DNA of 53,082 nucleotides from Candidatus Pacearchaeota archaeon (GCA_016866975.1 VGKP01000003.1:1-53082); one strand, 5' to 3'; counted from the first letter of the stretch, positions 3,810-53,082 are shown. A program made the numbers and translations. The notes: a model not told the origin generated them from the letters alone.

Positions 3810-4322
3810 ATGGGAATGGAAGAAATCGAGCGCGTCAAGAGCATCTTCCAAGAGCTCAATCTCAATCCTGAATACCGGGAACATGCGCCTGCAATCACTA
3901 GTGAAGAAGCTTCCCGTAATAGAGGAGATTTGCTGAAGCAAGGCATTAAATCTCTCCTGTTCACCAACGGCAAAGACTTCATCATCGTGAATCTTCCGGC
4001 AGATCAAAAAGTCGACACCAAAAAAGTCGAGCAAACGCTCAATTGGCAACGCTCAACTATGAGAATGGCAACACCTCAAGAAGTCATCGAAAAAACAGGT
4101 TGCGAGATTGGCGCAGTCCCTCCATTCGGCCACAAAACCCCTCTTCAAATCCTTGTAGACCTAGGAGTCTATGATAACAAAGAAAGCGCATTCAATATCG
4201 GTCTCCGCACGTATTCAGTAAAAATCTCTACGCATAAGATGAAAAATCTCTTTAGACATCTCAATGCGCTGGAAGGTGCATTTGCAAAATCATCACAAAA
4301 ACGATGCGCCACCTCGGATTGA
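3810..4322 (+). CDS. YbaK/ProXp aminoacyl-tRNA editing domain protein; last codons and stop supplied by the inserted hairpin element
   Basis: IKSLLF, GCEIGAVPPFGH and AFNIG motifs. TATA TTTATATA starts 29 nt upstream. Confidence 0.85.
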   Translation: MGMEEIERVKSIFQELNLNPEYREHAPAITSEEASRNRGDLLKQGIKSLLFTNGKDFIIVNLPADQKVDTKKVEQTLNWQRSTMRMATPQEVIEKTGCEIGAVPPFGHKTPLQILVDLGVYDNKESAFNIGLRTYSVKISTHKMKNLFRHLNALEGAFAKSSQKRCATSD

Positions 4323-4493
4323 AAACCGAGGTTTGTTGCAGTCGCTCGTTTTTGGAGATGCTCGGGAACCACCACACCTTGAAAGGTGTGGTTTTCATCG
4401 GTTCCCGACATAAGCACGATACACCACCTCGGATTGAAAACCGAGGTTTGTTGCAGTCGCTCTTGTCATCAAGGATGTAAATCCTTGACATAA
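4292..4493 (+). mobile_element. Hairpin element copy 1 (composite: A + B + partial A + minimal 26-bp hairpin)
   Basis: ATCA-caaaaacgatgcgccacctcgg...ggttcccGACATAA, then a second A arm and ATCAAGGATGTAAATCCTTGACATAA. Confidence 0.9.
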
Positions 4494-4499
4494 AATAAA

Positions 4500-5726
4500 T
4501 CAAACAACAACTTGAGCATCTCTATCAACATGTTTCCTCCAGCCTTGATTTGTTGGATCATATGAATTGATATAGCTTGAGATATAATTTGAAGGAATCA
4601 TCGCTTTGTGTCCTCTTCCTCTCTTGAAATTCACGTTTTTCCAGACATTGTTTCTGCTCTGGATTCTCGATAGTTCTTTAGCGCTCATGACAGAAATTCC
4701 AAGAACATATGCAATATCCTTGAAACTCAAGGAATTTTCTTTCCCTGCAAGCCTTAAAAGTGCTTCTTGCCTTCTTTCTTCCAAAGCCTGGCCGTTAAAA
4801 TTAAGCTTATTTCTGACTCTGTAAAGTTCTTCGCGTATTTTATACTGTTCAATATCATAATAGTCATAGAGAGATTGGAGCGAAACACATCCCTTGCCAT
4901 CGGCCTCAAAATCTCTTTGTGTTACGAGCCTCTTAATAGTGATCTCACCCATATTAAGGACGGAGACAAGTTCTTGATAAGGTATCCCTATTCTGCCCTT
5001 GGTATTCCAACTGACAAGTTGCTCTTCAAGCTTAAAAAGCTCATCCCAATCACGATGTTTAAGGCGGTTAAGTGCCTCTTGGGGCAGGATGTCGATGCGA
5101 TGCTCAAAGTGATAGGATGTAAACTGGCGTGGTTGTGATGCAGTGACAAGATTGATGAAAGAAGGATGAAATTTCTTAATATACCTATCGCTCCCATTGA
5201 GTTGGTAAAATAAAAAGGGATGTGGGAAGCAGTGATAAATGATCTCATCAGGATCCGAACATTTTAGAGCAGTATGCGTTGCGCTGATTGATGTGTGAAT
5301 ATGCGCTGCAAGATTGCGTGAAAGAGCACAGCTTTGGCGGCCCTTCATAGTAGCAGGAGAAAGGACATAGTACTGAGATGCATTTCCTTTGAGCTTAAAT
5401 CCTACAAACGTAGTGATGCACTTGCGCTCTAAAGTTGACATTATTTCAGCATCTTTTTGCATGCGCTCCCGAAGTAGCTCATGATCATCGAAGAGTTCAT
5501 GGAGCGCAGTTACAGATACTCGCGTATAGTGGTGCTCGTAAACACCTTCCCGCAACTTCTTAAAAGAATCTTTTATTTTTTTTCTAGCTCGCCTGATAGA
5601 AGTCTGTTCCTGGAACTTAAGAGAACGTAGTCGCTGTTGTAAACGCACATTCATGTCATTATACCCTACCATTAAAAAATTGACTATCGAAACTCTTATA
5701 AGCTTTTCGTACAGGCTCCACCGCAA
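4500..5726 (-). CDS. Hypothetical protein with C-terminal HTH-like segments (start uncertain, possibly 5656)
   Basis: 408 aa ORF containing IPYQELVSVLNMGEITIKRLV and LSFKDIAYVLGISVMSAKEL. Confidence 0.55.
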   Translation of the reverse strand: MRWSLYEKLIRVSIVNFLMVGYNDMNVRLQQRLRSLKFQEQTSIRRARKKIKDSFKKLREGVYEHHYTRVSVTALHELFDDHELLRERMQKDAEIMSTLERKCITTFVGFKLKGNASQYYVLSPATMKGRQSCALSRNLAAHIHTSISATHTALKCSDPDEIIYHCFPHPFLFYQLNGSDRYIKKFHPSFINLVTASQPRQFTSYHFEHRIDILPQEALNRLKHRDWDELFKLEEQLVSWNTKGRIGIPYQELVSVLNMGEITIKRLVTQRDFEADGKGCVSLQSLYDYYDIEQYKIREELYRVRNKLNFNGQALEERRQEALLRLAGKENSLSFKDIAYVLGISVMSAKELSRIQSRNNVWKNVNFKRGRGHKAMIPSNYISSYINSYDPTNQGWRKHVDRDAQVVV

Positions 5727-5768
5727 TTCTTTTAATCTACAATTCCCTCACTACAAAAAGAGACTATC

Positions 5769-6188
5769 ATGAAATACGAATTTGCCGAAGATATCCAACA
5801 GCGCATGTCGGAGATAGTGCAGACCTTGGGTATGCATCATATTGACTTACAGAGGGTAAAATGCTATCGTAGTAGTGGAAGCAGCACAAAAAGAACCATC
5901 GCGCGCTGCCATACCGTGGGTAAGCTTATGCAGAAAGCTATGGGTATGCCTGCATATTATGCAATAGAATTTCTGGAAAGATTTGAGAGAATGCAGAAAG
6001 ATGAGCAGGACAAGGTAATAATCCATGAGCTGATGCACATCCCTAAGACATTCGGCGGGGGTTTTAGACAGCACGATTTTGTATGCGACCAGAATGTAGA
6101 GATAATGCATGAAAAGTTTCTTGGTATGAAAAGATCCGGCACTGAACATAAGGTTCCTGAGAAAAAGCTCTTCCCATTTTGGAAATGA
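5769..6188 (+). CDS. Putative HExxH metallopeptidase
   Basis: VIIHELMHIP zinc-binding motif and RTIARCH; a small archaeal metallopeptidase-like family. Confidence 0.75.
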   Translation: MKYEFAEDIQQRMSEIVQTLGMHHIDLQRVKCYRSSGSSTKRTIARCHTVGKLMQKAMGMPAYYAIEFLERFERMQKDEQDKVIIHELMHIPKTFGGGFRQHDFVCDQNVEIMHEKFLGMKRSGTEHKVPEKKLFPFWK

Positions 6189-6538
6189 TTATCGACATAA
6201 CTATCTCAAAGAATAATAGAAAAATAAGCTTCCCCGTACATAGAGTGTCTATTCTGGGAAAGATAACCGGTCTTATGTTCCGCACCAGGAATACACGAAA
6301 CCTTCTCTTCGAATTTACCAGGCCAGTAAAATTATCAATACATTCCTGGTTCGTCTTTTTCCCTTTCCTTATAGTCTGGACAGACAAGAAAAACAATGTC
6401 ATCGGACAGAAAGTTGTCTTGCCGTTCACGACGGCAATTGCTCCACTAAGACCATTTTCAAAGGCCATAGAAGTGCCATTTTCACGACGAAATAAGGACA
6501 TCCTTGATTTCTTCGTCGACACAAAAAGATTTAAATAG
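6185..6538 (+). CDS. DUF192 family protein
   Basis: GLMFR, IHSWFVFFPFLIVWTD and IEVP motifs. Confidence 0.75.
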   Translation: MIIDITISKNNRKISFPVHRVSILGKITGLMFRTRNTRNLLFEFTRPVKLSIHSWFVFFPFLIVWTDKKNNVIGQKVVLPFTTAIAPLRPFSKAIEVPFSRRNKDILDFFVDTKRFK

Positions 6539-51662: not shown

Positions 51663-51704
51663 AAAGGAGTCGACATTCCCATACAAGCGCGTCACCAACT
51701 TTTT

Positions 51705-52130
51705 ATGGAGCTTATAATAAAAGAGAAAATTAGTGCAGACCACTTACTCTACGTTAGTCTGAAATATACAAAGACATGTGATGTCATAATAAACCTGCTT
51801 CTACGATGGAAAATAATGATAGAATTGGGAATGGATTATCTTGTAGAGAAGGCAAAGAAGCAGAAGAAATGGAAGCCAATTCCCAACGCGCCAAGGGCAA
51901 AGCTCATCCAGCTCAAGGAAGTATTTGCTAATAACAAGGAAATAAGTGATGCCCTTAAGCTTTATGAGCTATTTAGAGATATAGAGCAATTGGACAAGGT
52001 TAGGGAGAATGAGTTCAGGAAAGGAGTAAATCTTAAAGTCACATACAAAGGGCAAACTATAAATATTAACTTGGAAAAGTTGAAAGAATACGCTGCCACG
52101 TTAGAAAGATTTATAAGTGCCCTTAAATAA
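51705..52130 (+). CDS. Conserved hypothetical protein
   Basis: ADHLLYVSLKYTKTCDVI motif of an uncharacterised archaeal family (from recollection). Confidence 0.6.
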   Translation: MELIIKEKISADHLLYVSLKYTKTCDVIINLLLRWKIMIELGMDYLVEKAKKQKKWKPIPNAPRAKLIQLKEVFANNKEISDALKLYELFRDIEQLDKVRENEFRKGVNLKVTYKGQTININLEKLKEYAATLERFISALK

Positions 52131-52168
52131 CTTTGTTTGTTCCGACTCGAATTTCGGCGGAAAAAATC

Positions 52169-52921
52169 ATGGCTAAACTAATTACTATCACATCAGGTAA
52201 AGGCGGTGTTGGAAAGACCACAACTGCCATCAATCTTGGGGCTGCACTGAACGCCTTTGGAAAAGAGGTCATTGTCCTTGATGCCAATCTAACTACACCC
52301 AACATAGGACTCCACCTAGGCGCCCCCATAGTTCCTATAAGCCTTAATCATGTCCTTCTAGGAAAAGCAAAGATTGCTGACGCCCTTTATGAGCACGAAT
52401 CGGGTATGAAAATCATCCCTAGTTCTCTTTCAGTCAGGGAACTAAGAAGGTTAAATCATGGAAAATTGAAGGAAGTAGGCAAAAAATTAAGGAAGATGGC
52501 AGACTACATCATATATGATTCAGCCGCAGGATTGGGAGAGGAAGCCTTGGCAGCCATGGAATCAGGAGATGAGCTGATTATTGTAACCAATCCAGAAATA
52601 CCTGCAGTCACTGATGCCCTCAAGACCAGCAAGGTAGTTGAAGAGCTTGGAAAACAAGTCAGAGGAGTCATAATAACTCGTGTCAGAGGCCTTAAGACAG
52701 AGATGCCAATCACTAATGTCAAAGAAATGCTCGAATTGCCTATTCTTGGAGTCATTCCTGAAGATAAGAATATGCAATCAGCCCTTATCATGAAAGACGC
52801 CCTATTGCACACCCATCCAAGAAGCAAAGCTGCAAGAGCATATCGCCAGATAGCTGCTCGTATAATAGGCAACAATGCCTACAAAGAAGATTATACTTTG
52901 CTAGAAAGAATATTTGGATAA
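52169..52921 (+). CDS. minD: MinD-family ATPase
   Basis: SGKGGVGKTT, DANLTTPN, DSAAGLG and VTNPE motifs. Confidence 0.92.
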   Translation: MAKLITITSGKGGVGKTTTAINLGAALNAFGKEVIVLDANLTTPNIGLHLGAPIVPISLNHVLLGKAKIADALYEHESGMKIIPSSLSVRELRRLNHGKLKEVGKKLRKMADYIIYDSAAGLGEEALAAMESGDELIIVTNPEIPAVTDALKTSKVVEELGKQVRGVIITRVRGLKTEMPITNVKEMLELPILGVIPEDKNMQSALIMKDALLHTHPRSKAARAYRQIAARIIGNNAYKEDYTLLERIFG

Positions 52922-52972
52922 TTTTTAGCCCAAACCTAATTGCCGCATCATATTCTACTTTACAATTCGAAC

Positions 52973-53082
52973 ATCAAAAAAACGATGCGCCACTGCGGCT
53001 TAAAAGCCGCAGTTTGATGCAGGCGCTCGTTTTTTGGATGCTCAAGGAACAACTCCAGCTTAAAAGCTGGAGTTTTAGTCAA
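52973..53082 (+). mobile_element. Hairpin element copy 12 (A' + C), truncated by the window end
   Basis: Matches copies 5 and 9 up to the last base of the window. Confidence 0.92.

Follow-up and report, generated by a model that had tools for sequence, protein, structure and literature searches.

The palindrome-associated transposable elements (PATEs) of Haloquadratum walsbyi are too short for a transposase, lack terminal inverted repeats and carry palindromes close to their termini (PMC3119063). They have a 5' targeting sequence of 4-5 nt and a conserved 3' terminal oligonucleotide, cause no target duplication, form homogeneous high-copy families whose palindromes are themselves entered by small repeats, and are maintained where intact tnpA genes are scarce or absent from the genome (PMC3119063). 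In the insertion sequence (IS) IS608, 4-nt guides located 5' of the subterminal hairpins read the cleavage tetranucleotides, with cleavage-site (C) and guide (G) positions paired as C-3:G1, C-4:G2 and C-1:G4, the G3 position being a flipped-out A and C-2 an unpaired A; left cleavage occurs 19 nt before the hairpin and the right end lies 10 nt after it (PMC3201880). The top strand of IS608 and ISDra2 is biased to the lagging-strand template (PMC5027513). Here a family of short hairpin elements is analyzed in a Candidatus Pacearchaeota archaeon (GCA_016866975.1), starting from a window of 53,082 nucleotides (VGKP01000003.1:1-53082) that represents the whole 53-kb contig C3 of the genome G000 (31 contigs, 806 kb, 39% G+C; C-numbers denote contigs of this genome, and G001-G024 denote relatives, including sister species of the genus). 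The elements are most likely, with a probability of roughly 85%, non-autonomous, PATE-like members of the IS200/IS605 superfamily that move by a peel-and-paste mechanism using a Y1 HUH transposase TnpA supplied in trans.

The 12 copies listed in an earlier sequence-only reading of the window were all recovered at their positions, every one on the plus strand when read as ATCA...GAC. Among the 11 copies beginning with module A, ten start with ATCA, the exception being copy 6 with ATCT; ten of 11 intact right ends read GAC-ATAA, and here too copy 6 differs (GAC-ATCA). Two degenerate pieces had been overlooked, one upstream of copy 1 and one directly behind it. The proposed density of one copy per 4-5 kb describes the window (one per 4.4 kb) but not the genome, which has roughly one per 10-13 kb. 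Searches of the genome and the metagenome-assembled genomes (MAGs) of sister species returned ∼80 BLAST loci in 806 kb of G000, where the left-end motif is matched 60 times and full copies number about 60. The family is also present in 11 of the 16 sister species and in another genus, and single A or B modules occur as well. Sequence identity among copies is 94-100%, and comparison with shuffled sequences gives a folding z of ∼ -10 for each strand; this is a real repeat family, far beyond chance. The elements lack terminal inverted repeats, have subterminal hairpins at both ends and are too short to encode a protein.

The element ends were fixed by six comparisons of filled and orthologous empty sites. 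Copy 11 in the window (AGAGAA[ATCA...GAC]ATAATCAA) corresponds to AGGAAA^ATAAGTGA in G016, and copy 10 is missing in G008. Exact removal in silico of ATCA...GAC from eleven gene-interrupting copies, followed by searches of the genus, yielded three alignments that run without gaps across the excision junction, namely the EamA-type transporter gene carrying copy 9 against its uninterrupted G016 orthologue, a NUDIX gene (C25:5965) against G016, and a HAD hydrolase gene (C2:34736) against G010. The sixth comparison places a G009 tnpA homologue, TATCGAT[ATGTC...GAC]ATAAGATG, against the intact G000 sequence TATCGGT^ATAAGATG; the G009 gene (G009:C123, L074, ∼725-893) is thus inactivated by a related hairpin element at an ATAA site. 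In all six cases ATAA is present and ATCA absent at the empty site, and nothing is duplicated or deleted, in line with the lack of a consistent target-site duplication noted earlier and at odds with the duplications typical of DDE transposases. Because the empty sites hold ATAA and not ATCA, the element is ATCA...GAC and ATAA belongs to the flank, subject to an inherent 2-nt (AT) ambiguity. The alternative that had seemed to fit equally well, a core inserted at ATCA^TAA, is refuted because the empty sites lack ATCA and because the third base of the flanking ATNA varies in otherwise near-identical copies (36 A, 4 C, 3 T and 2 G). On the minus strand the junctions read TTAT|GTC...TGAT, as first proposed, with TTAT remaining in the flank and TGAT ending the element; the target is T-N-A-T, which is TTAT in 78% of G000 copies, and the TGAT terminus is found in nearly all of them.

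Read on the minus strand, the element has the sequence TTAT^GTCAAGGAACTTGACT-AAAA-[CTCCAGC TTTTAA GCTGGAG]...GCAT-CAAA-[CTGCGGC TTTTAA GCCGCAG]TGGCGCATCGTTTTTT-TGAT^ and the layout TTAT^GTC-[outer stem-AAAA-IP_L-outer stem]-AGCATCC-[outer stem-CAAA-IP_R-outer stem]-TGAT^, where IP_L and IP_R are the left and right inner hairpins. The IS608 rule predicts a guide AAAA for TTAT and CAAA for TGAT, and both tetranucleotides are found 5' of the respective inner hairpins, in G000 as well as in copies from other species. The cleavage-to-hairpin spacing is 20 nt at the left end and 21 nt at the right. Among 40 diverged copies belonging to ten other species, every one ends in TGAT and nearly all have CAAA; their stems vary freely. 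The target lies outside the element, yet it tracks the left guide: A at guide position 1 is accompanied by T at target position -3 in 71 of 84 copies, C by G in 4 of 6 (Fisher p = 0.0017), and T, which characterizes the TAAA subfamily of G008, by A in 3 of 8 (p = 0.011). Sister-species copies with left guide CAAA or TAAA thus preferentially occupy TGAT and TAAT targets.

The stems themselves covary strongly: across 39 distinct copies, the 43 stem pairs are intact in 97% of cells, and compensatory double changes occur at 26 of them. Such covariation, together with the very stable folds, might also be expected of an immobile family of structured RNAs or terminators conserved for its function. 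However, orientation is independent of the flanking genes (all 12 window copies are on the plus strand, with genes on both), copies interrupt open reading frames (ORFs), sister species have empty orthologous sites, the two strands do not differ in how well they fold, and no Rfam family matches the elements, all of which makes this reading scarcely credible.

The proposed mechanism follows the IS608 paradigm. The active (top) strand would be the minus strand of the window, on which TnpA would bind the two inner 7-bp hairpins, with AAAA and CAAA, just 5' of the hairpin feet, pairing with TTAT and TGAT as in IS608. After cleavage by TnpA, the strand would leave as a circle having the right end-left end junction …TTTTTTTGAT|GTCAAGGAAC… and would be pasted 3' of a TTAT exposed on the lagging-strand template. 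Pasting of a single strand at this template would therefore produce no target duplication and an orientation linked to replication.

Orientation is indeed strongly non-random. Neighboring copies have the same orientation in 32 of 37 pairs and different orientations in 5 (p = 4e-6), in 48 of 60 copies the proposed top strand coincides with the strand that is locally richer in G (p = 1.6e-6), and the same uniformity within contigs is observed in G008. If the top strand resides on the lagging-strand template, orientation should flip from '+' to '-' across an origin. Contig C4 has such a flip between 9 and 34 kb, which was predicted to be of the origin type; the only orc1/cdc6 gene of the genome, looked up after this prediction, is at C4:19229-20494 within the flip interval and has a very AT-rich spacer upstream, and this locus (C4:18950-20494, gene included) is likely a replication origin. 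The two '+' to '-' flip intervals cover ∼36 kb of 806 kb, giving a chance expectation of ∼4%. Strict strand bias and guide-target pairing are unexpected for a DDE-type miniature inverted-repeat element or for a site-specific element of the tyrosine or serine recombinase or integron attC-like kinds. Small size, high copy number and the position of copies at junctions of variable gene blocks are compatible with these mechanisms; nevertheless the copies are dispersed rather than arrayed and lack both terminal inverted repeats and target duplication, so that this class of explanation appears extremely unlikely.

The statement that no enzyme is encoded is correct for the window but not for the genome, in which an intact IS200/IS605 TnpA of 155 aa with HUH motif and catalytic Tyr is encoded at C10:122-589; a second TnpA type is seen only at the ends of contigs C6 and C12, and contig overlaps place the first IS in two copies. 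The right end of the C10-type IS is GAAA[CCGCACCC TTTA GGGTGTCGG]AGGATG-TCAT^, where homology to a G013 copy stops exactly, and its G009 homologue has GAAG...TCAC^, a compensatory pair. The left ends are TTAA^...AAAT[hairpin] in the C10-type IS and ATAA^...ATAT[hairpin] in G009, and the second IS type has GATG[hairpin]AGCT-TCAC^, its end coinciding with the point of divergence between its two copies. Of 80 metagenomic relatives of the C10 TnpA, 39 had their terminal hairpin identified correctly, and all 39 pair GAAA with TCAT or GAAG with TCAC. Judging by these ends, autonomous IS of this lineage obey the IS608-type guide rule. The hairpins of the metagenomic relatives belong to kinds that also serve as inner hairpins in the small elements (CTCCACAC-TTTA-GTGTGGAG, CCTTGCC-TTTTAA-GGCAAGG and CCGCACCC-TTTA-GGGTGCGG), and the first of these is identical to the left hairpin of a small-element copy in G013. 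In the 80 metagenomic loci, inspection around the tnpA homologues for small-element ends revealed a single neighboring copy, ∼370 nt downstream of a 100%-identical tnpA and not at the IS ends.

At the junction of the reverse complement of C21 with C10, ∼120 nt upstream of tnpA, one IS copy has an exact 21-nt small-element tail, GTGGCGCATCGTTTTTTTGAT, right after the left hairpin, and the other IS copy has unrelated sequence at this position. Recombination of the IS with a small element may account for this tail.

A Y1 enzyme in the genome, together with high copy number, hairpins and a mostly intergenic location, also recalls repetitive extragenic palindromic (REP) sequences and the doublets (REPINs) formed from them, which are short high-copy hairpin repeats linked to a Y1 HUH enzyme; under this explanation a domesticated, single-copy REP-associated tyrosine transposase (RAYT) would maintain REP-like hairpins in the service of the host. 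The C10 TnpA scores 77.8 bits against the IS200/IS605 model NF033573 (cut-off 55) and 31.2 bits against the RAYT model NF047646 (cut-off 80), contrary to the REP likeness first suggested, and it is part of a multi-copy IS with defined ends. Moreover, the copies are single oriented units and not inverted REPIN doublets, gene disruption still occurs, and sister species differ in the sites occupied, which are lineage-specific. A domesticated REP/RAYT-type system is accordingly very unlikely.

Several observations weigh against a PATE-like family served by the resident TnpA. The Y1 transposase domain PF01797 gave no match in the element-bearing genomes G005, G008, G016, G001, G011 and G024; G005 has 31 element matches at 91% completeness, and G008 has a homogeneous subfamily. 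The right-end spacing from hairpin to cleavage is 21 nt in the small elements and 8-10 nt in the candidate IS family, the hairpin foot is extendable by A:T pairs that would shift the guide register, and the strongly covarying outer helices, if formed, would keep the guide apart from the cleavage site. With respect to replication, GC skew is only a proxy for its direction, '+' copies in contig C1 lie on a strand with weak G enrichment, and in C4 the cumulative skew reaches its minimum near 7 kb rather than 19 kb. The missing PF01797 matches and the different right-end spacing would fit a situation in which single-strand hairpin elements were moved by some other enzyme, borne by the host, a virus or a plasmid, or by a nuclease or recombinase not of the Y1 type, the resident IS200-type TnpA being irrelevant; the same paradox exists for the Haloquadratum PATEs (PMC3119063). 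On the other hand, guide-cleavage complementarity and covariation conform exactly to the IS608 rule, and the small elements have hairpin types matching those at the ends of the TnpA family. IS copies are often lost from MAGs, and even in G000 the tnpA copies sit at contig breaks. Within the genus, elements occur in all 7 Y1-positive genomes and in 5 of 10 Y1-negative genomes, and the absence of Y1 from element-bearing relatives may reflect MAG incompleteness or a missing enzyme. No element copy was found in the viral contigs searched, and the idea of a viral vector was dropped. Movement by an unrelated enzyme is therefore regarded as quite unlikely.

Mobilization in trans by a Y1 HUH TnpA thus remains the preferred reading, and the earlier proposal of a non-autonomous HUH-mobilized family with target TTAT and minus-strand right end TGAT is supported by the empty sites, by complementarity between guides and cleavage sites, by covariation of guide with target, by the replication-linked strand bias and by the matching TnpA family. 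The remark that PATEs are described mainly in bacteria does not hold, since they were defined in the archaeon Haloquadratum (PMC3119063). All of the PATE features enumerated above are common to the elements described here. In contrast to PATEs, however, a second helix, itself covarying, encloses each TnpA-type hairpin, the left and right spacings are almost equal (20 nt and 21 nt), left and right modules recombine freely (A1/A2 with B1/B2) with no interior IS sequence kept, and the host is a DPANN archaeon in whose genome there is no TnpB or IS1341 partner. The TnpB family PF07282 has no match in the genome, and a PATE of the TnpB/omega-RNA-associated (IS1341-type) class was rejected on this ground. 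With IS608 and ISDra2 the elements share duplication-free insertion 3' of a tetranucleotide, guides of 4 nt that lie 5' of subterminal hairpins and read the cleavage sites in the same pairing register, a similar left spacing (20 nt as compared with 19 nt) and a top strand on the lagging-strand template; they differ in having neither internal tnpA nor tnpB, in their additional outer helices, in the target (TTAT, not TTAC or TTGAT) and in the right spacing (21 nt, not 10 nt). On sequence grounds, the family seems to possess all testable defining features of PATEs and of the IS608 paradigm, and, to judge from the literature searched, no transposable-element family of this type had been characterized before in DPANN archaea.

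Lengths, taken as ATCA...GAC excluding ATAA, fall into classes of 118 nt (A1 or A2 with B1) and 120-121 nt (A1 or A2 with B2). Composites of 169-221 nt carry extra small hairpins in the loop of the inner hairpin of module A or between modules A and B. These extra modules, 20-50 nt long, are located in the TTAAAA loop and between A and B in window 37448-37668 and at C2:40556, C13:7454, C24:4549 and C8:126; they resemble the SMR-A repeats that target PATE palindromes in Haloquadratum, and the guide rule applied to them gave no consistent fit. In a few copies the loops are reverse-complemented (TTAAAA to TTTTAA, TTGAAA to TTTCAA; C1:38856, C1:39349, C1:46344 and C6:34166), as if the tips had been inverted. 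Features of the family in the window are collected in the table.

Table. Element copies and related fragments in the 53,082-nt window; coordinates are those of the whole window, and the strand is that of the proposed top strand.
Feature	Position	Strand	Description
Degenerate fragment	1279..1355	(-)	Two small hairpin modules and a decayed B right end (GTTCCTTGAT-ATCA)
Copy 1	4292..4409	(-)	A1B1, 118 nt, ATCA...GAC; target ATAA at 4410-4413
Degenerate second element	4410..4489	(-)	A-like module and short hairpin, then ATAA; sequence read directly
Copy 2	12472..12560	(-)	Extra hairpin module and B2, without module A; ends GAC, then ATAA; left boundary uncertain
Copy 3	29734..29851	(-)	A1B1, intergenic, between two minus-strand genes
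Copy 4	33559..33676	(-)	A2/A1 hybrid with B1, intergenic
Copy 5	34014..34133	(-)	A2B2, 120 nt, interrupts minus-strand ORF
Copy 6	37448..37668	(-)	221-nt composite; left end ATCT, target ATCA
Copy 7	40104..40221	(-)	A1B1, intergenic
Copy 8	46636..46755	(-)	A1B2, 120 nt, after codon 3 of P-loop kinase gene 46627-47268
Copy 9	47352..47471	(-)	A2B2, splits EamA-type transporter gene 47265-48254
Copy 10	48542..48659	(-)	A2B1, 2 nt past stop of small membrane-protein ORF ending 48540; G008 site empty
Copy 11	50404..50524	(-)	A1B2, 121 nt, just upstream of start of gene 49551-~50390 (-)
Copy 12	52973..53082	(-)	A2B2, cut by contig end

Individual copies are informative about targets and neighboring genes. 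Copy 1 is positioned on the TAA stop codon (TC|A TAA) of the ORF at 3810-4322, and the minus-strand end ...CTTAT of the degenerate element behind it was used by copy 1 as its TTAT target. The ORF interrupted by copy 5 comprises 82 + 95 codons and becomes contiguous once the copy is excised in silico. Extra hairpin modules of copy 6 occupy both kinds of position, within the loop of the module A inner hairpin and between A and B. Copy 12 is not the only copy reaching a contig end, as contig ends of the G000 assembly often fall inside element copies.

About two thirds of the TTAT/ATAA sites fall in coding ORFs, as against roughly one fifth to one quarter of the copies, a depletion of about 3-fold, indicating that genic insertions are selected against. 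Nevertheless, real genes have been split by about ten copies, of which nearly all belong to the 120-nt type; the genes include those of a MutS-like ATPase and of HAD, NUDIX and EamA proteins. Read-through is limited to copy 8, which the P-loop kinase ORF traverses in frame, and to a few copies near gene starts. In-frame peptide insertion in the manner of the Rickettsia palindromic elements was rejected because stops within the element break most host ORFs. On direct reading, the sequence likewise showed neither the bulge-helix-bulge geometry of an archaeal intron that could rescue the split genes nor matching take-off and landing codons for translational bypass.

All of the ∼10 gene-interrupting copies, in the window those at 34014, 46636 and 47352, are in codon phase 0 (…TAT| or |ATA…), for which the expected fractions are 0.40 and 0.50 even when flank-weighted (post hoc p ∼2e-4). 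An extended target preference was discarded as the source of this bias, as a null weighted by a position weight matrix still gives 0.40 and 0.50. Where the top strand is the sense strand, a stop follows 5 codons into the element, and a GTG in frame lies 7 codons ahead of the exit. It is conceivable, though unlikely, that the elements do more than ride along passively: the outer helices might act as a conformational switch hiding the guide and cleavage tetranucleotides until the DNA becomes single-stranded at the fork, subfamilies might retarget themselves by single-base guide changes, and phase-0 copies might owe their survival to making working two-piece genes.

Other features of the window were recorded alongside the elements. 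The P-loop kinase and EamA genes (46630-48712) are missing from all sister genomes compared (G008, G002, G007 and G004), and the genes at 48712-50477 are present only in G008 and G016 among the sister genomes; this is a variable gene hot spot, each junction of which carries an element copy. A full-length group I intron match (Rfam RF00028, 81.5 bits) is located at 31340-31612 on the minus strand, and three tandem 80-nt direct repeats at 25877-26073 start within the 3' end of a tRNA-Gly gene (25818-25888).

For the organism, the family accounts for the fragmentation of these MAGs, whose contigs end in copies, and shows tolerance of some ten recent interruptions of genes in a genome of ∼0.8-0.9 Mb. 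For the IS608 paradigm, it offers a natural data set in which the guide-target pairing rule, including natural retargeting, can be read directly from genomes, and its strict strand bias is a marker of replication direction in uncultivated archaea that requires only sequence. If copies do yield working split genes, they would provide a mechanism for the split genes typical of nano-sized archaea.

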